From an uncultured Gammaproteobacteria bacterium (GTDB taxonomy: Bacteria > Patescibacteriota > Microgenomatia > Daviesbacterales > UBA10151): 64,000 nucleotides of DNA. Every line of letters starts with the position of its first letter. Within the stretch, counting starts at the first letter, position 1. Under the pieces are notes generated by a model. The model was not told where the DNA came from. It made no database searches and saw nothing but the letters and a program-made list of their open reading frames with translations. Location of the stretch: positions 3,634-67,633 of the forward strand of contig CAZCNP010000006.1 in NCBI GenBank assembly GCA_964500725.1. The letters run 5' to 3'. This document shows, piece by piece, positions 430 to 28,500 of the stretch. The translations under genes were made by a program, and so were the position numbers.

Positions 430-1788
430 TCAAGTTTTTTGAGAAAGCCTAATATCAACCCTTTCCATATCTCTTGGGAAAAGACTAGCCTCTCTCACAT
501 TAGAAAGATTCAGAACATGCATCGTCACTCGCTCCAGTCCAAAAGAGAATCCTCCTTCTGGGGGCATACCAAATTCAAAAGCCTGAAGATACATTTTAAA
601 ACTATCAGTATTCATTCCCCTACTTTTAATACTAGCGACAAGCTGCTGATAATCATTAATTCTCTGACTACCACTTAAAATTTCCAAACCCCTGAATAAT
701 AAATCATAACTTAGACTATATTCTGGATTTTGGGGATCTGGCATGGTGTAAAAAGGTTTTGCTGCAGTAGGAAAATGGGTAATAGTAACAAAATCACTAT
801 TATGCTTATTTCTGGACCATTTACATAAATCAATTTCATCCTGTGGGGTTAAATCTTTTTCCTTTCTATTATCGCGCCCAAATTCTTTATAGATAACCTC
901 TTGAGCTTCTCTTAAACTCAGTCTTGGAATTTTTCCTGAAAGCACTTTTTCAACACTAAATTCAGTTAGAGTATCTTCACATTCTTCCTCAGCCACTTTT
1001 AACATTTTAACTGCCACCCCTTCTAGTATATCTAACAAGTCTGTAAATTTAATAAAGCCCACTTCAATATCCATCTGAGTGCTTTCTGTTAAGTGTCTTG
1101 TAGTGACTGAGGGTTCTGCCCTGTAAGCTTTAGCTATTGTAAAAACTCTTTCAAATACTGGTATAAGCATTTGTTTATACAGTTGCGGACTCTGAGACAA
1201 ATAAGCTTTATGTTCAAAGTAATCTACCTTAAAAACTTCCGCTCCACCCTCAGTTGCTCCTGCCACTATTGTCGGCACAACAATCTCCGTACAACCTAAT
1301 TCATAGGCTGCTTGTCTAAATCCGGCAAGCAAACTTGATTGGACTTTAAAAATAGCCTTTACCTTAGGATGGCGCAAAGTAAGCGAGCGATAATCAAGAA
1401 GTGTAGGTAATTGCAAATCTAACTCTTTTGCTCCCATATCAAAAGGCAATTCTGCTGCCTCAGATAATACCTCAATATTTTCTGCAGAAATTTCAATCTC
1501 ACCTGTAGGAATATTCTTATTGACCAAATGCTCGGGTCTTTTATTAACTTTACCAGTTATACAAACTACATCTTGAGGGTGCAAATCCGGAGCTATTTCC
1601 TTGGTAGCTACTACCTGTATTACAGCTGACCTATCAGATACATCCAAAAATAAAATTTTCCCATGATCCCTTCGCACTTGTACCCATCCGTAAATATTAA
1701 CCTGCTCGCCAACTTTTTTATTACAATCTAAAATTAAGGTTCTATCCATATCCTCTGCATCATAACAGGAGCGTGTATAAATTGACAA
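430..1788 (-). CDS. aspS: aspartate--tRNA ligase, archaeal/eukaryal-type class II
   Basis: LSQSPQLYKQML, motif 2 FRAE...TRHLTE and motif 3 GGFSFGLERV fit AspRS rather than AsnRS. Track start is TTG at 1788; in-frame ATG at 1749 (MDRTLILD) is the more likely start. Confidence 0.8.
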   Translation of the reverse strand: MSIYTRSCYDAEDMDRTLILDCNKKVGEQVNIYGWVQVRRDHGKILFLDVSDRSAVIQVVATKEIAPDLHPQDVVCITGKVNKRPEHLVNKNIPTGEIEISAENIEVLSEAAELPFDMGAKELDLQLPTLLDYRSLTLRHPKVKAIFKVQSSLLAGFRQAAYELGCTEIVVPTIVAGATEGGAEVFKVDYFEHKAYLSQSPQLYKQMLIPVFERVFTIAKAYRAEPSVTTRHLTESTQMDIEVGFIKFTDLLDILEGVAVKMLKVAEEECEDTLTEFSVEKVLSGKIPRLSLREAQEVIYKEFGRDNRKEKDLTPQDEIDLCKWSRNKHNSDFVTITHFPTAAKPFYTMPDPQNPEYSLSYDLLFRGLEILSGSQRINDYQQLVASIKSRGMNTDSFKMYLQAFEFGMPPEGGFSFGLERVTMHVLNLSNVREASLFPRDMERVDIRLSQKT

Positions 1789-1815
1789 GATGCAGGCTAG
1801 ATGCTAAGATTTAAA

Positions 1816-2117
1816 TACAATTAAATATTTTAAATCCGTTAATCTGGAAGGTTGGAACCAGGTAGGAGAGCAAAAGTATGCTACAGAGGCAAAACTGTAA
1901 AAGATCAGCAACATGTGTCGAAGTTTCGGAGCATGTCATGAATAAGGTTAACTTATTCCTTTTTGACATCCCTGGCGACAGGGATTTTTTAATGGCAATA
2001 AGTTAATAAAACAAGGTGGCACCGCCTAATCTTGTAAGCAGAGCTTTCCTTTTGCTTTGCACAACATAGACCCTTGTTAGATTACGAAATATCGTAGTCT
2101 GACAAGGGCTTTTTTTG
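1816..2117 (+). promoter_or_regulatory. T-box-like leader RNA (copy 1): stem III hairpin, T-box sequence, antiterminator and intrinsic terminator
   Basis: ACAAGG-UGGCACC-GCC (2011-2026) resembles T-box consensus AGGGUGGNACCGCG. AACAAGG (2010-2016) can pair CCUUGUU (2072-2078), which overlaps terminator CCCUUGU(2071-77)/ACAAGGG(2102-08)+U7. Stem III at 1970-1983. Confidence 0.5.
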
Positions 2118-2520: not shown

Positions 2521-4359
2521 ATGGAAAACTTGGAGAAAATTGCAAAACTTATCAGGTATTTTATTTTAGTTTCTACCACTGAGGCAGGCTCGGGGCATGT
2601 TACATCATCTTTATCTGCAACAGATCTAATGACTGTTTTGTTATTTGATGGATTTTTTAAATTTGATGTAAAAAACCCTCAAAATCCAAATAACGATAGG
2701 TTAATCTTTTCCAAAGGCCATGCCTCCCCTCTTTTCTATTCTCTCTTTGCTGCAGCTGGAGCAATTACTGAAACAGAACTTAAAACATTAAGAAAATTTG
2801 GCAGTAGGTTAGAAGGACATCCTACTATGCTGTTTCCCTTTACCGAAGCTCCTACTGGCTCTTTAGGTCAAGGTTTATCTATTGGATTAGGCATGGCACT
2901 TTCTGCAAAATATCTAGATAAATTGCCTTTTAAAACTTATGTTTTGTTAGGAGATTCCGAGATGGCAGAAGGCTCTGTCTGGGAAGCAATTCAACTAGCT
3001 GCACATTACCAATTAGATAATTTAATTGGAATTTTGGACGTTAACCGTTTAGGCCAACGAGGGCAAACAATGTATGGTCACAATATTAAAGATTATGAAA
3101 AAAGAATTGCTGCATTCGGGTGGCAGACAATAGCAATCGACGGGCACTCGCTAAAAGAAATCCGAGGAGCTTTTAAAAAAGCTCAAGGTATGAAAGGTGT
3201 TCCAATAATGATTATTGCCAAAACTTTAAAAGGCAAAGGTATTTCGTTTTTAGAAGACAAGGATGACTGGCATGGCAAAGCTTTAAAACCTGAAGAGCTA
3301 GAAAAGGCGCTAGCAGAATTAGGTCCTATTGATAAAAAGCTTACAGGAAAAATAACCATGCCCCCTAAATTTAAAGATCAGAAATTAAAAGCTAAAGTTT
3401 CAACCCAAGATTCAAAAACGAACTACCAACTAGGAGAAAACATTGCTACTAGAAAAGCTTATGGAAATGCCTTAGTTAGAATTTATCCTCAATTTCCTAA
3501 CCTGGTTGTGTTGGATGCAGAAGTCTCGAACTCTACTTTTGCAGATATATTTAAAAAAGCTTACCCGGAGAGATTTTTTGAAATGTATATTGCAGAACAA
3601 AACATGGTCGGCACGGCTTTGGGTCTAGCAAGACAAGATAAGATTCCTTTTGTTTCAACCTTTGCTGCTTTTTTTAGCAGGGCTTTTGATCAGATTCGGA
3701 TGAGTCAATACGCAGATACTAATATTAAGTTTATTGGCTCTCATGCTGGAGTATCAATTGGTGAAGATGGCGCTTCTCAGATGGGTTTGGAAGATATTGC
3801 TATATTTAGAAGCCTATTAAATAGTGTTATTTTATACCCTTCAGATGCTGTTTCCACTGAAAAATTACTTACTGAAGCTGCCAAACACAAAGGAAATGTT
3901 TATATTCGCACTACCAGAAAAGACACTCCAATTTTATATCCAAATAACGAACAATTTCCAATTGGCGGGAGCAAGATTTTAAAAAGTAGTAATAAAGATC
4001 TTGTAACTGTAATTGGAGCAGGCATAACTCTACATGAAGCTTTAGCTGCATATGAACAACTAGCTAAAGAAAATATCTTAATTAGAGTAATTGATCTTTA
4101 CAGCATCAAACCTTTAGATATTAAAACTTTAGTAAAGGCATCACAAGAAACACAAGCAATTATTACCGTTGAGGATCACTTCGAGCAAGGAGGCATAGGT
4201 GAAGCTGTTTCTTCTACTCTTTCTGGTCATAAGACAAAAGTGTATTCCTTGGCAGTTAGAAAAATGCCAAGAAGTGGAAAACCAGCTGAGCTTTTGGAAT
4301 ATGAAGAAATATCTGCAAGTGCAATTATACAAAAAGTAAAAGAAATTATTGCATTTTAA
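2521..4359 (+). CDS. tkt: transketolase
   Basis: 612 aa with GHxxSxxS TPP-binding N-terminal motif (SGHVTSSLSATDLM), GDSEMAEG, and pyrimidine-binding and C-terminal domains. Confidence 0.9.
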   Translation: MENLEKIAKLIRYFILVSTTEAGSGHVTSSLSATDLMTVLLFDGFFKFDVKNPQNPNNDRLIFSKGHASPLFYSLFAAAGAITETELKTLRKFGSRLEGHPTMLFPFTEAPTGSLGQGLSIGLGMALSAKYLDKLPFKTYVLLGDSEMAEGSVWEAIQLAAHYQLDNLIGILDVNRLGQRGQTMYGHNIKDYEKRIAAFGWQTIAIDGHSLKEIRGAFKKAQGMKGVPIMIIAKTLKGKGISFLEDKDDWHGKALKPEELEKALAELGPIDKKLTGKITMPPKFKDQKLKAKVSTQDSKTNYQLGENIATRKAYGNALVRIYPQFPNLVVLDAEVSNSTFADIFKKAYPERFFEMYIAEQNMVGTALGLARQDKIPFVSTFAAFFSRAFDQIRMSQYADTNIKFIGSHAGVSIGEDGASQMGLEDIAIFRSLLNSVILYPSDAVSTEKLLTEAAKHKGNVYIRTTRKDTPILYPNNEQFPIGGSKILKSSNKDLVTVIGAGITLHEALAAYEQLAKENILIRVIDLYSIKPLDIKTLVKASQETQAIITVEDHFEQGGIGEAVSSTLSGHKTKVYSLAVRKMPRSGKPAELLEYEEISASAIIQKVKEIIAF

Positions 4360-4488
4360 TTATTACTGCTGTATAATTTTTTAATTGTTATGAATATATT
4401 AAAACAAAGCAACTATTTTTGGTTTTATTTTACTTCCCCAAGGGAGGCTAGCTAAGGCTATTTAAAAATAAGCCAAGAGCTTGTTAAA

Positions 4489-4512
4489 CCTCCCAATTAG
4501 GGAGGTTTTTTT
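4489..4512 (+). terminator. intrinsic terminator after tkt
   Basis: CCTCCC-AATTA-GGGAGG followed by T7. Confidence 0.6.
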
Positions 4513-4535
4513 GTGAGAAAAAAGAGAAAATAAAT

Positions 4536-5357
4536 ATGTACAAAGTTGAAAGAATAGAAAGAAGCGATATAATAAGGCCAGACGAGTTTGCTGTTGCCGG
4601 TGGCCCATGTGCAATAGAAACAGAAAAACAAGCTTTCGCTGTTGCACAGTCTCTTTACGAGATGGAGATACGGATATACAGAGGACAATTATGGAAACCC
4701 CGATCAAGCAGAGATAGTTTTCAAGGCATAGGGCTTGCAGGAATACCATGGTTGAATAGAATTAAAAGAGATTTCGGTATGGTTATTGCTACAGAGATTG
4801 TAGATAAAGACCAGATAAAACCAACCATTGATGTTGTAGACATACCATGGATTGGATCAAGAAATATGCAGAATTTCGAGTTATTAAAGGCTATAGCTGA
4901 TGATGGAACAAACCGACCTGTAATATTAAAAAGAGGCGCATCTGCAACAATTAAAGAGTGGTTACAATCCGCAGATTATATAGGCAGAGAAAGAGTTATA
5001 CTGTGTGAACGTGGAGTAAGAACTTCTACAGACTCAACAAGATACACTCTAGATTTAAATGGGGCTCTGGTGGCAAAACATGATCACGGAATGCCTGTAA
5101 TAGGCGACCCTTCTCATCCGGCCGGCCGTCGTGATTTAGTTTTACCCCTTGCTCGTGCCATTGTAGCCGCTGGGCTGGATGGAATGGTAGTAGAAATACA
5201 TACCAATCCCGAACAAGCCTTATCTGACAAAGATCAACAAATTACTCCTGAGACTTTTCGTGAAATGTTAAGACAAACACGAGCAATATATAAAGTGTTA
5301 AATCCCCCGGTTTTAAATGGCCATCATACTAGACTTTTATCACCTGCATTAGCATAA
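4536..5357 (+). CDS. 3-deoxy-7-phosphoheptulonate (DAHP) synthase, class I-beta type (KDO8P synthase cannot be fully excluded)
   Basis: 273 aa, KPRSS...FQGIGL and GDPSH motifs of the I-beta DAHPS/KDO8PS fold. Adjacency to pheA favours DAHP synthase. Confidence 0.7.
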   Translation: MYKVERIERSDIIRPDEFAVAGGPCAIETEKQAFAVAQSLYEMEIRIYRGQLWKPRSSRDSFQGIGLAGIPWLNRIKRDFGMVIATEIVDKDQIKPTIDVVDIPWIGSRNMQNFELLKAIADDGTNRPVILKRGASATIKEWLQSADYIGRERVILCERGVRTSTDSTRYTLDLNGALVAKHDHGMPVIGDPSHPAGRRDLVLPLARAIVAAGLDGMVVEIHTNPEQALSDKDQQITPETFREMLRQTRAIYKVLNPPVLNGHHTRLLSPALA

Positions 5358-5362
5358 TTTTT

Positions 5363-5446
5363 ATGAATATCAAACAACAACTTACCAATATACCAAATAA
5401 GGAATTCTTCTTTTTTACTCCGCCAAAGGACGGGGGTCATTCTTAA
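5363..5446 (+). CDS. candidate Phe leader peptide (27 aa): MNIKQQLTNIPNKEFFFFTPPKDGGHS
   Basis: Small ORF directly upstream of pheA with four consecutive Phe codons (TTC TTC TTT TTT, 5405-5416), ending just before the attenuator hairpins. Confidence 0.5.
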   Translation: MNIKQQLTNIPNKEFFFFTPPKDGGHS

Positions 5447-5498
5447 CATTTAAGTTAAGAATATCAAAGAGACACCCCCGCCCAAAGCGGGGTTTTTT
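5429..5498 (+). promoter_or_regulatory. transcription attenuator (antiterminator/terminator) of pheA
   Basis: Terminator CCCCGC(5476-81)-CCAAA-GCGGGG(5487-92)+U6. Alternative pairing CGGGGGU(5431-37) with ACCCCCG(5474-80) sequesters the 5' terminator strand. Confidence 0.5.
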
Positions 5499-5507
5499 AA
5501 TAAAAAT

Positions 5508-6443
5508 ATGATTAATGAAACAGAGTTAAAAATTAATGATCATCCAATAGTAGTAAAACTTGCTCAAGACAGAACAAAACCTAGAGTAGCTTGTTTAGGA
5601 CCAGCAGGTACTTACACAGAAGCAGCCAGATATGAATTATTAAAAGATCATCTGGATAGGATGGATCAAGAATTTCTCCCTGCCAATGCTAAAGTAGTCC
5701 AACAAGTAGAAGCAGGTGATTTTGATATTGGTATTGTTCCTGTTGAGAATGCCATTGAAGGAGACGTTGTTGAAGTCTTAAGAGAACTAAACCATACCAA
5801 AGAAACTACTATATTGGGAGAAACGATTTTAGGCATCGATCATATGCTAATCGGTCAACCAGGATCTAACACAGAAGAAATCCGTTCTCATCCTCAAGCA
5901 TTAGCTCAATGCAGAAGTTTTCTTTTAGAGAATTATCCTCAAGCAAAACAAGAACCATCGCTTAGCACCACAGCTGCTGTTGAGTATGCTTTACAACATC
6001 CAAGCACGACAGCAATTGCTGGCAGAAGAGCAGCTATAGTTTATAACCTGCCTATTTTGGCGGAAAATATTGGGGATGTTAAAGGTAATTCCACCCGCTT
6101 TTTAATATTGGGCAGAGGCGAAACTGAGCCCACAGGTCAAGATAGCACCGCTTTAATCTTCGTTCCGAGAGGAGACCGCCCAGGCATTTTAGCCAGATGC
6201 TTAACTGCCCTTGCTTCTTATGGAATTAATTTAACCAAATTAGACTCCCGCCCTACTGGAGTAATGAGAGAATATGCATTTTGGATTACTTTAGATGGTC
6301 ATATCAAAGATGAAATGGTCAGGCGAGGAATAGATGATTTAAGAGATACCTATTGTTCGTCATTAAGGGTACTTGGTTCTTATAGGAAAGCAGAACTACC
6401 ACAAGGGGCGAAAGACCCCGGAGCTATCAATAATAGTGGATAA
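5508..6443 (+). CDS. pheA: prephenate dehydratase (PDT catalytic domain plus ACT domain)
   Basis: 311 aa with PDT domain, C-terminal ACT domain and the TKLDSRP motif. Confidence 0.85.
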   Translation: MINETELKINDHPIVVKLAQDRTKPRVACLGPAGTYTEAARYELLKDHLDRMDQEFLPANAKVVQQVEAGDFDIGIVPVENAIEGDVVEVLRELNHTKETTILGETILGIDHMLIGQPGSNTEEIRSHPQALAQCRSFLLENYPQAKQEPSLSTTAAVEYALQHPSTTAIAGRRAAIVYNLPILAENIGDVKGNSTRFLILGRGETEPTGQDSTALIFVPRGDRPGILARCLTALASYGINLTKLDSRPTGVMREYAFWITLDGHIKDEMVRRGIDDLRDTYCSSLRVLGSYRKAELPQGAKDPGAINNSG

Positions 6444-17791: not shown

Positions 17792-18068
17792 GGGTGCCTA
17801 GGAAGTTAGTAAGCCAGATTCTGTTTCTCGATGATCATTTATCTAACGCTCCTTACTTCAACAAATGGGCAAGCAGCCCTGTTGGTTCTAGGATTGCAGC
17901 GGGGAGGATTGCCACGTTTCACCCGAGCATGACCCCGGTTCGTCACTGTTGCTCTAACTAGGCCTTACGGCTTCCAGCTTATGCTGGACACCCTGCTCTA
18001 TGCTGTCTGGACTTTCCTCTTAAGTAGTTTAAAGCTTCTTAAGCGATCATCCTTCTTCCTAGGCAGGT
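17792..18068 (-). ncRNA. rnpB: RNase P RNA (bacterial type-A-like, compact, about 277 nt)
   Basis: Minus strand GAGGAAAGUCCAGACAGCAUAGAGCAGGGUGUCCAGC (CR-I) ... GGGUGAAACGUGG ... ACAGAAUCUGGCUUACUAAC (CR-V). P1 is GCCUAGGAAG/CUUCCUAGGC. Confidence 0.85.
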
Positions 18069-24183: not shown

Positions 24184-24990
24184 TTAATTTCCTTCTGCGC
24201 TAAAATGACGAAATCCGCTACTAATCATTAGTTTCGTTAGAATAATAAGAGTTATAATCCAGGCAGAAATTATTGAAAACCCATACAAAATTTCTGCATT
24301 TCTCATTCCTCCTAAATATATTTTAGAAGGAAAATATATTAGATAAGGGAATGGTGTTATCATCAAAATATTAAATATTTCTCTTGGTAAGATATCTAAG
24401 GGAAACAATCCTCCACCTAAAGTTTCCAGTAATACCCCAATCAAAAATAATGGCCCCCAAGAATTTTCCATCCAAAAAGCTGTCAAAGAAATTAAAAAAT
24501 TTATACAAAAATAGATAACGAGCCCCCCAGCAATTGCAAAAATAAAATATGCTAAAACTTGTATATTTGTTTGAATTATAACTGCAGGCTTTAATAGAAA
24601 AACTAATACGGAAACTTCCCCAATATAAAATAGGATATTAAAAAGCTTATCAGCTATATCCCGCGCTAAATAATATTTTACAAACCCAAGTGGCTTTATT
24701 AAAAAGTTAACTACACTCCCACTATTTATTGAGTCTATTAAATCCGTTACTCTTGTAGATAAAACAATTGCCCGAATCAAAGCAGCAATTAAAATATAAG
24801 TCAGTATAGATGAAGCAGTGTAGCCGAAGATTTGCTTTTGAGACTGAAAAACACTCCACCAGATAAAATACACTAAAAGAAGTTGCATCACAGACCTAAA
24901 TCTCCACAAAACAAAATTAAGTCTATATATTAGATTTTGCTGCCAAGCTATTCTAAAAACAGATATATATTTACCCATCAGATTTACCAA
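24184..24990 (-). CDS. ABC-2 family transporter permease
   Basis: 268 aa, six TM helices. Confidence 0.6.
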   Translation of the reverse strand: MVNLMGKYISVFRIAWQQNLIYRLNFVLWRFRSVMQLLLVYFIWWSVFQSQKQIFGYTASSILTYILIAALIRAIVLSTRVTDLIDSINSGSVVNFLIKPLGFVKYYLARDIADKLFNILFYIGEVSVLVFLLKPAVIIQTNIQVLAYFIFAIAGGLVIYFCINFLISLTAFWMENSWGPLFLIGVLLETLGGGLFPLDILPREIFNILMITPFPYLIYFPSKIYLGGMRNAEILYGFSIISAWIITLIILTKLMISSGFRHFSAEGN

Positions 24991-25291
24991 ATACCCAAGG
25001 TGTTTCCTTTTTATCTTTTTGCACCTTTGGACGATACTTTAATATCTTGTTAACCCTTACCACAGTATCTGTCCCAACACCAACCATTTTTGCAATTTTT
25101 CTAACCGGTAACCCCTTCTCTAAGAGACTTCTAATTTGAAACCGGTTCCTTAGCATCTTCCATTCTGATAAGGTTAATAATTCCTTTAAAATTTCTGTTG
25201 GCACTTCAATATCTTTACCCTGCCCTGGCTTACTCACAGCTAAGTTACCTTTCTTCTTTATTACTGAATATTTGTCTGACGATATCCTCAA
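24971..25291 (-). CDS. TrpR-like YerC/YecD family HTH protein
   Basis: LTLSEWKMLRNRFQIRSLLEKGLPVRKIAKMVGVGTDTVVRV matches the YerC/YecD signature. Track start is TTG at 25291; GTG at 25239 would avoid the 47-nt overlap with the ATPase. Confidence 0.5.
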   Translation of the reverse strand: MRISSDKYSVIKKKGNLAVSKPGQGKDIEVPTEILKELLTLSEWKMLRNRFQIRSLLEKGLPVRKIAKMVGVGTDTVVRVNKILKYRPKVQKDKKETPWVFGKSDG

Positions 25292-26615: not shown

Positions 26616-26828
26616 CTATATTCCTTGCATCTTCTCTTTAAGTTTAAACTCCAGAAACTCTCTCACTCTTTTATCGGGTTGATCCTCTTTACCAAAGGCT
26701 TTAACTAATGCATAAGTAAATGTCTCAACTCTATCTGCAGGGACGCCCAATCTTTCCACCAAACTTTCAATTGTGGGAACAGTTTGACCAACCTGATCAA
26801 ATTGTCGCATTCCATTTCTTTCTAACAT
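26616..26828 (-). CDS. small AbrB/MazE/SpoVT-like protein (70 aa), directly downstream of T-box-like leader copy 2
   Basis: GAGGAGG RBS then ATG 26828 (track start 26849 abuts the terminator U-tract). MRQFDQVGQTVPTIESLVERLGV parallels AbrB RKVDELGRVVIPIELRRTLGI. Confidence 0.45.
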   Translation of the reverse strand: MLERNGMRQFDQVGQTVPTIESLVERLGVPADRVETFTYALVKAFGKEDQPDKRVREFLEFKLKEKMQGI

Positions 26829-26849
26829 TTTTCCTCCTCTCTTTGACAT

Positions 26850-27113
26850 AAAAAAGCCCTTGTAAATCCCTAAGATATTCTTAGAAACTTACAAGGGCCT
26901 TCAAAAGGCGGTGCCACCTTGCTTTAAGTTTTTACATAAAAAATCCTCCAATTACGGAGGAGTACTGTAGAAACTTAATCTTACAGCGCTCCGTTGCCGA
27001 CACGCTTATTGTATTTATACAGTTCAATTTCTGTCACAGTATTTCTTTGCCGACTGACCTGTGCAGCTTGTCTATTGCGATAGACTCAAACGCTTTTAAA
27101 ATATTTAATTGTT
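26850..27113 (-). promoter_or_regulatory. T-box-like leader RNA (copy 2) with canonical antiterminator (A1 / UGGNACC bulge / A2) overlapping an intrinsic terminator
   Basis: Minus strand CAAGG-UGGCACC-GCC-UUUUGAA-GGC-CCUUGU (26921-26891), then terminator GCCCUUGUAA...UUACAAGGGC+U6 (26898-26850). Stem III CCUCCGUAAUUGGAGG at 26959-26944. Confidence 0.55.
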
Positions 27114-27144
27114 GATAATAGTATAACAGGAGAAAGTTAGAGTG

Positions 27145-28500
27145 TCAAACAGTCATGGTACTTTCAGTATAACGTGTTTCTCTAACTGCTGTTATTTTAA
27201 CAGCTCCTGGCACCATTACTTCTTTAGAAATTCGCTCAGCTATATCATGAACAAGCTTTGGCAGCTCATCATCTGAAATTCTCTCTGGAATAACAATAAC
27301 TCTTACTTCTCTTCCTGCTTGCACTGCAAAAGCTTTCTCCACTGCATCAAAAGAATTAGCAATATTTTCTATATCACCCATTCTTTTTATATAATCTCCA
27401 ACATTCTCATGTCTGGCTCCGGGCCTTCCTCCAGATATAGAATCAGCAATATATACTAAGATTGACTCCACAGCAGAAAAAGGCTTATCTTCATGATGCT
27501 CTGCTATACAATTGATTACCTTCTCCGGCAGATTAAATTTCTTAGCAAGCTGTACTCCTTTTTCAACATGAGTACCTTCATCTCCTTCTGTCACAACTTT
27601 TCCTATATCATGTAGCAAGCATCCAAGCCTTACCACATTCACATCTGCTCCAATCTCCTTTGCCAAAGCAATACCAATTTGGGTTTCCTCTTGAGTATGC
27701 AAAATTAAATTCTGTCCATAAGAGTATCTGTATTTAAATCTACCAATAATATCAATAAGCTCTACTGGCAAATTATAAACTCCTACATCATGACACAGCT
27801 TTTCTCCTGCCTCTCTCATTAACTTGTTAATATCCTCTTGCGTTTTTTCAACAATTTCTTCTATTCTTTGAGGTTGAATTCTGCCATCTTCCATCAACCT
27901 TTCTAAAGAAACTTTGGCAATCTCACGCCTTACTGGATCAAAGGAAGAAAGTATTAAAGTATCTGGAATTTCATCATCCATTACTACATCAACACCTGTA
28001 GCCTGCTCAAAAGTTCTCACATTTCTACCTTCTTTACCAATAATCCTGCCTTTCATTTCTTCATCAGGCAGTTTTACTTTTGAGGTAGTAAACTCTGAAA
28101 TATAATCTGTAACTCCATGTCGCATTGCATCTGCTAAAATATCTTTAGCTTTTTCATCAGCCGTTATTTTTATTTCTTCCTCAGCTTCTTTAATCTTTTT
28201 GGAAATTTCACCAGCAAGTTCCTGGTCTAAATTTTCCAAAAGAATCTTTTGAGCTTCATCTTTTGATAAGGAGGAGGCTTTTTCTAGTTTAGAAACTAAC
28301 TCTTTCCTTGTTTTCTCAAGTTGCTCTAATTTATCATCAATTAATTTTTGTTTTTCAGAAATTTGCCTTTCTCTTTCTTCTAAAATACCTTCTCTTTTTG
28401 CTAGCTCTGCTTCTTTCCTAACAAAATCTCCTCCTGCTGAAGGACTAGTTTGTTGATATGATTGCTGGCTAGACGAAATCGGCTTAAATGTTCTCTGCAT
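27145..28500 (-). CDS. rny: ribonuclease Y (KH + HD domains; no N-terminal TM)
   Basis: N-terminal coiled-coil region, KH domain, and HD motif LLHDIGK. Confidence 0.8.
   Translation of the reverse strand: MQRTFKPISSSQQSYQQTSPSAGGDFVRKEAELAKREGILEERERQISEKQKLIDDKLEQLEKTRKELVSKLEKASSLSKDEAQKILLENLDQELAGEISKKIKEAEEEIKITADEKAKDILADAMRHGVTDYISEFTTSKVKLPDEEMKGRIIGKEGRNVRTFEQATGVDVVMDDEIPDTLILSSFDPVRREIAKVSLERLMEDGRIQPQRIEEIVEKTQEDINKLMREAGEKLCHDVGVYNLPVELIDIIGRFKYRYSYGQNLILHTQEETQIGIALAKEIGADVNVVRLGCLLHDIGKVVTEGDEGTHVEKGVQLAKKFNLPEKVINCIAEHHEDKPFSAVESILVYIADSISGGRPGARHENVGDYIKRMGDIENIANSFDAVEKAFAVQAGREVRVIVIPERISDDELPKLVHDIAERISKEVMVPGAVKITAVRETRYTESTMTV

Follow-up and report, generated by a model that had tools for sequence, protein, structure and literature searches.

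A putative T-box leader upstream of a transketolase operon

The window analysed in this work is a 64,000-nt stretch of contig CAZCNP010000006.1 (assembly GCA_964500725.1), from an uncultured bacterium of the order Daviesbacterales (Patescibacteriota). Close to its first end, aspS is divergently transcribed from a small open reading frame (ORF), and the region between the two genes (1782-2116, +; hereafter copy 1) very probably comprises the promoter and the leader of a transcription-attenuating T-box responsive to tRNA-Trp. Under its control would be the small ORF and the genes encoding transketolase (tkt), DAHP synthase and prephenate dehydratase. The small ORF (2149-2484, +) encodes an orphan protein of 111 aa, and is preceded by the Shine-Dalgarno (SD) sequence GGAGGAGG at 2133-2140. 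The enzyme genes (transketolase 2521-4359, DAHP synthase 4536-5357, prephenate dehydratase 5508-6443) form the remainder of the putatively regulated operon (2521-6443, +), and all score above the NCBIfam cut-offs. A related leader, hereafter copy 2, is found on the opposite strand (26849-27148, -), between rny and an ORF of 70 aa.

The relatedness of the two leaders had been originally predicted from two exact blocks, and both are found as described. The 18-mer ACAATTAAATATTTTAAA has exactly two exact copies in the window, at 1817-1834 (+) and 27095-27112 (-), the chance expectation with up to two mismatches permitted being 0.13 matches. The 15-mer CAAGGTGGCACCGCC is exact at both 2012-2026 (+) and 26907-26921 (-), and its observed count was equalled by no shuffle. 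When the two leaders are aligned, similarity extends over the whole length, well past the two blocks. Common elements include an ACAG...CUGU hairpin, the GUGUCG...CGGAGC motif, the stem III, the terminator and the initial codons of the downstream ORFs, and compensatory changes between the two leaders are found in stem III and terminator. The notion that copy 1 is a second copy of the same leader holds in the sense that the two are related and belong to the same class; they are different switches, because copy 1 exposes a UGG (Trp) and copy 2 a CGC (most likely Arg) triplet. The small proteins encoded downstream, in contrast, had been regarded as paralogous, and this claim is not sustained: BLASTP between the two ORFs gives an E-value of 9.5, and the likeness ends after the first ~17 N-terminal residues, where ~10 identities fit the motif M-QF...GQT--TI-ES, and the DNA is similar too.

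Copy 1 starts with a sigma-70-type promoter (1782-1810, +), in which TTGACA and TAAGAT, the latter with a TG extension, are 17 nt apart (10 of 12 matches). The copy 2 promoter has the same layout (TTGACA-17-TATACT, 27148-27120, -), as have many of the related leaders found in metagenomes (labelled L plus a number, and described below). Both promoters are near-consensus, and each stops 7 nt short of the 18-mer, which is therefore the predicted 5' end of the RNA (ACAAUUAAAUAUUUUAAA, 1817-1834, +, beginning 7 nt past the -10 box). The 18-mer had been tentatively viewed as promoter, transcript start or protein operator; its location at the predicted transcript start agrees with the second of these options. 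A general promoter-proximal motif has been ruled out, as the exact core is found in the window solely in the two leaders, and matches with one mismatch (12 versus 7.5 ± 2.8) are at chance level. As a side note, the -35 box of the leader (TTGACA, +) and that of a candidate aspS promoter (TTGTCA, 1788-1783, -) lie back to back, and overlap at 1782-1788. The latter promoter would leave aspS, which starts at 1749, almost leaderless.

Competing folds in the 3' domain

The T-box sequence AAGGUGGCACCGCC is present at both loci. In copy 1 the antiterminator (2010-2078, +) is made by helix A1 (2010-2016/2072-2078, 7 bp) and helix A2 (GCCUA, 2024-2028/UAGAC, 2067-2071), which are separated by the 7-nt bulge UGGCACC (2017-2023) carrying UGGC at 2017-2020. 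The pairing of AACAAGG with CCUUGUU, already proposed as A1, forms when segment 2008-2080 is folded. The same fold includes the hairpin GCAGAGC...GCUUUGC, which had been correctly placed within A2; the distance from GCC to CCCUUG is 44 nt, and not 47 nt as reported. The intrinsic terminator is located as claimed (2071-2116, +), and consists of a 17-bp stem (2071-2108), a C, and seven U residues (2110-2116). The 5' arm of the terminator shares nucleotides with the 3' arms of A1 and A2 (2071-2078), and terminator and antiterminator are mutually exclusive. In copy 1 the terminator has a folding energy of -48.2 kcal/mol, versus -20.2 kcal/mol of the antiterminator segment. The 3' domain of copy 2 alone folds into a canonical antiterminator (A1, the 7-nt bulge UGGCACC, A2; -10.6 kcal/mol), and the terminator prevails (-38.8 kcal/mol) once the downstream arm is included. 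In both leaders the terminator stem spans 17-20 bp, and is followed by 6-7 U residues. Terminators far more stable than antiterminators are the layout expected where the latter must be stabilized by uncharged tRNA. The SD sequence lies outside the switch, which argues for control at the level of transcription. The core of the original prediction is upheld: the region is a T-box leader in which antiterminator and terminator compete, and it has both a stem III and an insert in A2.

The extended stem III (1948-2006, +) has a base helix formed by UUAACUUAUUCC (1948-1959) and GGCAAUAAGUUAA (1994-2006), and an apical hairpin at 1968-1985, followed by a run of six U residues (1985-1990), in agreement with the hairpin expected before the T-box. 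The base helix shows compensatory changes in two relatives (L173 and L182). The GC-rich hairpin plus U6 (1968-1990 in copy 1, 26961-26938, -, in copy 2) is scored as an intrinsic terminator located just 5' of the T-box, and a hairpin with a U-run occupies this place in 27 distinct leaders. The structure may represent a programmed pause, giving the tRNA time to bind. CUUAUU (1953-1958) has two alternative partners, the upstream linker GAAUAAG (1940-1946), with which it forms a small hairpin, and the downstream AAUAAG (1997-2002) in the base of stem III. The latter pairing covaries in L173 and L182. The alternative pairings could represent a folding intermediate or a switch.

A compact 5' domain

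The 5' domain of copy 1 opens with a short stem I (1835-1867, +), made by the basal helix UCC (1835-1837)/GGA (1865-1867) and the upper helix UCUGG (1843-1847)/CCAGG (1858-1862), and topped by a 10-nt apical loop (AAGGUUGGAA, 1848-1857). The internal loop GUUAA/UA separates the helices where a kink-turn (K-turn) is expected. Both helices covary. As an example, the basal helix is AGC/GCU in L120 versus UCC/GGA in copy 1, all three pairs being exchanged. The AG bulge and the distal loop which make the platform for the tRNA elbow are missing: the stem spans only 1835-1867, and the alignment to the Rfam model deletes 74 model positions. Stem II (1869-1882, +; AGCA-AAAGUA-UGCU) bears the AGUA motif, and all of its 4 pairs change on both sides in the largest alignment of 5' domains (A5, see below). 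It is followed by stem IIA (1883-1898, +; ACAG-AGGCAAAA-CUGU) and AAAAG, which together yield the F-box-like CUGUAA. A partner for a IIA/B pseudoknot has been looked for in copy 1 and Trp-type relatives, and none was consistent; a partner (IIB) can be recognized in copy 2 (AUUG, 27028-27025/CAAU, 27011-27008), L094, L106 and L103. Stem II is just 4-5 bp long, and covariation is seen in both the stem II and the stem IIA helix. Next comes an extra hairpin specific to the class, called P4 (1911-1936, +; ACAUG-UGUCG...CGGAG-CAUGU), of which the five outer and two inner pairs all covary, and the conserved linker GAAUAAG (1940-1946, +), located 3' of P4.

Conservation of the 18-mer extends outside the window. 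The identical sequence (ACAAUUAAAUAUUUUAAAGC) follows the -10 box in L094, and ACAAUU(A/G)AAUA is found at the same place in L123, L164, L167, L148, L116, L106, L136 and others, across specifiers. The 18-mer is thus best seen, judging from its distribution, as a class-wide 5'-terminal element under selection, and not as a remnant of a recent duplication. A pairing partner has been sought in the U-run of stem III and in GAAUAAG, and none was consistent between the two copies. The 18-mer could act within the initially transcribed region, make a tertiary contact, or serve as a protein site. The latter option leads to an alternative scenario, in which the attenuator is operated by an RNA-binding regulator, or by the product of the small ORF, bound to the 18-mer or the GAAUAAG repeats. 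Both sequences are conserved with no pairing partner assigned, and small ORFs follow several leaders. This scenario is nevertheless highly improbable, because it leaves unexplained the geometry of the T-box bulge, the match of UGGN with tRNA discriminators and the tracking of codons with genes described below, and because the copy 1 ORF is devoid of any relatives: a homologue search retrieved only its own entry, annotated HY383_00775.

Membership of the T-box class

The Rfam T-box model RF00230 has no match at its gathering score (93 bits) anywhere in the window, and none of 20 related leaders reaches this score. The check originally suggested was therefore negative at the curated threshold, the values of a sensitive search being 19.3 bits for copy 1 (E 0.041, 1830-2054) and 24.7 bits for copy 2 (E 0.0015, 26890-27117, -; the top match there), and membership had to be established by comparative evidence. 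In the Rfam alignment the T-box/antiterminator, the F-box-like CUGUAA and AGUA are matched, and most of stem I is deleted.

Relatives were found by scanning metagenome contigs with a pattern composed of the blocks exact in both leaders (T-box core, terminator arms, U-run). At least 120 stretches were obtained, versus ~0.1 estimated by chance. Part of them are ordinary T-boxes with a long stem I from gut metagenomes, and many are low-GC (0.33-0.45) groundwater contigs hosting closely similar leaders. The leaders were retrieved by their 3' domain only, and the 5' domain, which had no part in the retrieval, could thus be used to build an independent covariance model. The model, called R1, rests on the 5' domains (from the K-turn strand to GAAUAAG; alignment A4) of six leaders from other metagenomes, and includes no window sequence. 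Run on the whole window with filters off, R1 identified copy 1 (1832-1949, +) with 122.3 bits (E 2.6e-28), and copy 2 (26971-27097, -) with 39.9 bits (E 4.8e-8); the next best match in the window, inside rny, scores 16.8 bits. In the 80 listed metagenome loci R1 matches 34 sites.

Covariation is in line with these results. In an alignment of copy 1 with six other Trp-type leaders (alignment A2, not to be confused with helix A2), 90.8% of the cells are paired, versus 27-48% when partners are slid, and 20 pairs change on both sides, versus 9.8 ± 1.9 in shuffles, none of 500 reaching the observed value. Helices A1 and A2 are invariant in this set, being fixed by the search pattern. In the larger alignment A5, which includes 35 distinct 5' domains, the paired fraction is 93.9% of the cells, and compensatory changes are seen at 22 of 23 pairs (0 of 500 shuffles); the alignment is model-fitted, and hence biased toward the structure. 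A MAFFT alignment of leaders with mixed specifiers (A3) was unreliable in stem I, and for this reason did not enter the model. On comparative sequence grounds, leaders 1782-2116 (+) and 26849-27148 (-) are genuine members of a T-box class.

Specifier codons and downstream genes

The apical loop of stem I in copy 1 carries the triplet UGG (1853-1855, +), followed by A1856 and A1857. This triplet is common to the loops of leaders which precede trpS, trpE, trpB and tRNA-Trp genes. Loops with UGG followed by a purine are found upstream of trpS in L089 and L170 (TIGR00233 above cut-off). UGG loops precede trpE in L107, where the gene is recognized by Pfam, and in L127, L132, L151, L167, L175 and L183, where the same N-terminal sequences occur. 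Similarly, UGG loops precede trpB in L187, and tRNA-Trp in L091/L099/L143, L124, L149, L171 and L148. Other triplets track other genes. CGC followed by a purine is the sole triplet common to the loops GU-CGC-GA, C-CGC-AG and U-CGC-AA, the latter being found in copy 2, and CGC loops precede genes for ornithine carbamoyltransferase (L093, L182), GNAT and argininosuccinate lyase (L106, L131) and acetylglutamate kinase (L198). A CCC loop (L194) precedes proS, which scores above the curated cut-off, and CCU loops (L092, L095) apparently precede proC and proS, as judged by N-terminal sequences only. UAC loops precede tRNA-Tyr in L098, L177 and L153.

The UGGN sequence of the bulge can be compared in the relatives with the discriminator base of the adjacent tRNA. 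All 15 combinations pair (12 by Watson-Crick, 3 by U-G, never C-A). The match is no more than suggestive, since the lineages are redundant, and the one-sided p is estimated at ~0.02-0.07. Copy 1 has been read as a Trp T-box because of the UGG at 1853-1855 and the UGGC in the bulge, and we infer on the same basis that Trp is the amino acid sensed in this genome. The genes downstream of copy 1 belong to aromatic pathways.

Within a 10-nt loop several triplets overlap, and AAGGUUGGAA could also direct a functional T-box to a different tRNA, for example via GGA or GGU (Gly), or UUG (Leu); GGA is indeed found in nearly all Trp-type loops. Yet, such loops precede trpS, trpE, trpB and tRNA-Trp, and never gly or leu genes, and the codon is in the same register, on the 3' side of the loop, in the Arg, Cys, Pro and Tyr versions. 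In addition, UGGC implies a G73, which is seen in the tRNA-Trp of relatives L120, L124, L149 and L171, while bacterial tRNA-Gly carries U73 and tRNA-Leu A73. Recognition of a tRNA other than tRNA-Trp by copy 1 is therefore very unlikely.

Some leaders may extend the list of specifiers. L207 has the loop GU-UGC-GA along with UGGA, and lies ~230 nt upstream of its T-box; the combination fits Cys, as U73 is the discriminator expected in tRNA-Cys. The loop AAAGAUUCC of L136 (308-432) and L101 (125-246) fits Phe.

Several leaders end 5-15 nt before a tRNA gene (tRNA-Trp or tRNA-Tyr) which matches their own codon. They include L091 (6236-6385), L124 (4156-4300) and L149 (2407-2564); further leaders of this kind are L171, L148, L098 (4476-4623), L177 and L153 (210-363). 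As deduced from this arrangement, the tRNA would arise only by readthrough of the switch which senses that very tRNA. Minimal T-boxes of ~88-120 nt have also been noticed, which are reduced to a short stem I joined by a linker to the antiterminator/terminator, and lack stem II, IIA, P4 and stem III. Loci of this type are L132 (5733-5853, -) and L162 (1338-1462), and also L151, L090, L155 and L157. The minimal leaders L132, L162 and L151 are located upstream of trpE, L090 upstream of a gene for a membrane protein, followed by a trpS-like gene. Genes of the Asp/Glu/hydantoin racemase family occur as first or second gene after Trp- or Tyr-type leaders in L188 (PF01177 confirmed) and, by N-terminal likeness, in L120, L199 and L125; the gene after that of the racemase family is trpS-like in L188 and L120.

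The sister leader

Copy 2 (26849-27148, -) includes the promoter (27148-27120), the 18-mer (27112-27095), a stem I at 27085-27070 (GUCUA-UCGCAA-UAGAC), stem II (27063-27035), stem IIA (27034-27019), P4 (27006-26985), stem III (26961-26944, plus U6), UGGC (26916-26913) and the terminator (26899-26855). CGC (27079-27077) resides in the hexaloop UCGCAA. Stem I matches the GUCUAC-CGCA-GUAGAC of L131, L123 and L160, with a compensatory change of C-G into U-A. Other candidate specifiers, GAA-A-UAC-U (Tyr) in the second hairpin, and GCA and CAA in the first, have been dropped in favor of CGC, chosen because it is the sole triplet common to three stem I variants which precede arg genes. Copy 2 is probably an Arg T-box.

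The 70-aa ORF downstream of copy 2 (26616-26828, -) has a helix-turn-helix (HTH)-like LGVPxDxV segment and a weak match to Sigma70_r3 (E 0.15). A single-sequence homologue search returned only the self-match, and relatives have been detected right after three Arg-type leaders, the position held in all cases examined, L182 (2e-11), L093 (9e-8) and L094 (1.5e-5), in two of which the gene lies before that of ornithine carbamoyltransferase. A profile of the four copy-2-type ORFs hits just six clusters in a database of 5.8 billion proteins. Among the relatives of this ORF is one from the Rifle aquifer ('ACD') data.

Weighing a functional switch against a relic

Some data weigh against the hypothesis that copy 1 is a functional tRNA-Trp attenuator. 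Scores on RF00230 are far under the gathering score at both leaders. The stem III hairpin plus U6 by itself resembles a terminator. Helix A2 contains one C-A mismatch, and is interrupted by a 38-nt insert (2029-2066) folded into a hairpin (2038-2044/2054-2060). Most members of the class have UUGA...GA flanking the 3-bp basal helix at the K-turn site, copy 2 has UUGA...AA, and copy 1 UUAA...UA; the latter thus lacks the G-A/A-G tandem of the K-turn, replaced by AA/UA. Along with the mismatch and the insert in A2, this may weaken the switch. Prephenate dehydratase acts in the Phe branch, and is no obvious target of a Trp sensor. Three relatives pair UGGU with G73 by wobble only. No tRNA gene is found in the surroundings of the window, covering 10 kb beyond one window end and up to the contig end at the other. 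Finally, transcriptional T-boxes are said to need the elbow-binding platform (PMC7583486).

One may accordingly imagine that copy 1 is a decaying or non-functional T-box relic, in which the terminator constitutively damps expression. Among the seven aligned leaders, copy 1 alone has a non-pair at the second A2 position (pair 213/258), the K-turn positions are AA/UA versus GA/GA in most relatives, and the adjoining ORF is an orphan. Decay is, however, hard to reconcile with the 122.3 bits scored on the independent model, a value as high as those of leaders preceding trpE or trpS, and with the intactness of all helices, UGG, UGGC, promoter and terminator. AA/UA is found again in an independent lineage, which precedes tRNA-Trp (L091, L143, L099). 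Inserts in the A2 loop occur also in L167 and L127, and are unrelated to that of copy 1; the nearest relatives, L120 and L173, have none. A functional hairpin inserted in A2, the stem Sa, is known in staphylococcal glyS T-boxes (PMC9177973), and the copy 1 insert (2029-2066) resembles it, though lineage, amino acid and sequence differ. We regard a relic as unlikely, and a bit less so than a functional T-box reading another tRNA.

A model for the two leaders

Sequence elements, helices which covary, mutually exclusive folds, and a family of leaders in which codons track the downstream genes are observed features; tRNA binding itself is deduced from them. In the model proposed for the Trp-type leader, transcription would start at ~1817, and the nascent short stem I would offer the UGG (1853-1855) in its apical loop to the tRNA-Trp anticodon. 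The adjoining stem II and stem IIA are placed as in elements of Class III, which use stems I and II jointly to grip the anticodon stem-loop, with no elbow platform; the same could apply here. The 3' end of uncharged tRNA would then stabilize the weak antiterminator (A1 2010-2016/2072-2078), thereby blocking the formation of the stronger terminator (2071-2116), and allowing readthrough into the operon. Charged tRNA-Trp would not stabilize the antiterminator, and transcription would terminate at the U7 tract. Copy 2 (26849-27148, -) would work in the same manner, and most likely sense tRNA-Arg through its CGC loop.

Comparison with known T-boxes

Four classes of T-boxes have been distinguished (PMC10482949). 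A long stem I endowed with an elbow-binding motif characterizes classes I and II, which act mostly on transcription. The motif is missing from classes III and IV, in which stem I is short or of intermediate length. Class III elements present the specifier in an apical loop of 5-6 nt, depend on stem II, and are "mostly" translational (PMC10482949). According to reviews, the kinetic decision in transcriptional control needs a long stem I with its elbow-binding motif, a short one being associated with slower translational control (PMC7583486, PMC10482949), and some class I hits with a truncated stem I are included in TBDB (PMC7778990).

The leaders described here resemble Class I elements (RF00230; tyrS of B. 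subtilis) in several respects, as the presence of UGGN in a 7-nt bulge between A1 and A2, the competition of the antiterminator with an intrinsic terminator, stem III, a stem II with AGUA, a stem IIA with the F-box-like CUGUAA, and, in most class members, a 5' K-turn strand of the AAAGCGUUGA type. Targets, too, are genes for aminoacyl-tRNA synthetases and amino acid biosynthesis. In contrast to Class I, stem I measures ~33 nt versus ~90 nt, and lacks the interdigitated T-loop platform for the tRNA elbow, and the codon is in the apical and not in the internal loop. P4, the GAAUAAG linker and the conserved 5'-terminal ACAAUUAAAUA are additions of these leaders.

The short stem I devoid of an elbow-binding motif and with the specifier in its apical loop recalls Class III elements, such as those of Nocardia farcinica and Mycobacterium ileS (PMC10482949, PMC7583486), and so does, to the extent that a IIB partner is evident, the stem II and IIA/B domain located directly 3' of stem I. 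The likeness is one of architecture, as judged from published descriptions of the actinobacterial class. Differences are manifest. Known Class III elements are described as mostly translational, acting by SD sequestration, Ile-specific and actinobacterial, whereas the leaders described here have a strong intrinsic terminator and specifiers which fit Trp, Arg, Pro, Tyr, Phe and Cys at a minimum, and reside in Daviesbacteria and low-GC groundwater contigs. The apical loop of copy 1 is 10 nt long versus 5-6 nt in Class III (PMC10482949), while that of copy 2 is a hexaloop. The minimal leaders L132 and L162 (~88 nt) have a single-stranded linker in place of the stem II domain, and are similar in this respect to Class II elements of the glyQS type, which have no stem II. 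Unlike these, they lack a long stem I as well; the two leaders of the window retain stem II.

In the full-text literature searched, the coverage of which is incomplete, no paper links T-boxes with candidate phyla radiation (CPR) bacteria, Patescibacteria, Saccharibacteria or Microgenomates, or with sites upstream of tRNA genes. We tentatively propose, with a confidence falling somewhat short of even, that Daviesbacteria and other low-GC groundwater organisms, probably CPR/Patescibacteria, own a widespread class of T-boxes which decide on termination co-transcriptionally with no elbow platform, and in many genomes precede the gene of the very tRNA they bind. The stem III hairpin with its U-run pause, the 5' ACAAUUAAAUA, P4 and GAAUAAG may compensate for the missing platform. 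The function suggested by the sequences is ordinary, amino-acid-responsive attenuation; the form is compact, and outside the catalogue of Rfam.

Annotation based on Rfam thresholds is blind to both leaders of the window and to the 20 related leaders, and the amino acid regulation of streamlined bacteria is consequently missed; a class-specific model would recover it. Many natural leaders with a short stem I and strong terminators challenge the long-stem rule, and provide test cases of ~90-250 nt for fast tRNA capture. As to the signals monitored in this bacterium, Trp would be sensed for transketolase, DAHP synthase and prephenate dehydratase, and probably Arg for the small HTH-like protein, and perhaps the HU/ABC cluster downstream. 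At the class level, the association with tRNA genes suggests that the supply of tRNA is subject to feedback.

Distribution and neighbouring genes

The leader is absent from 80 tkt loci of other genomes, three of which from Daviesbacteria, in which both the T-box core and similarity to the leader have been sought, and thus it is not conserved along with tkt. Strain variants of the locus found in Logan (L085, L087, L088) are identical in sequence. The transketolase is 66-78% identical to proteins encoded by contigs labelled as Nitrospirota/Thermodesulfovibrionia, Deltaproteobacteria and various Patescibacteria, a pattern which suggests horizontal spread of this type of tkt. Some of the labels, as an example 'Gammaproteobacteria' on co-assembly bins, may be wrong.

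Past the 70-aa ORF, the neighbourhood of copy 2 includes genes for HU, an ABC ATPase, a YerC/TrpR-like protein and two ABC-2 permeases. The YerC/YecD TrpR-related gene (24971-25291, -) matches the Pfam Trp_repressor family above cut-off (47.6 bits), and is below cut-off in NCBIfam (28.6 versus 42.2 bits). Elsewhere in the window, the RNase P RNA (17794-18062, -) is only 269 nt long, and lacks several helices of the bacterial type A model, on which it scores 125 bits.

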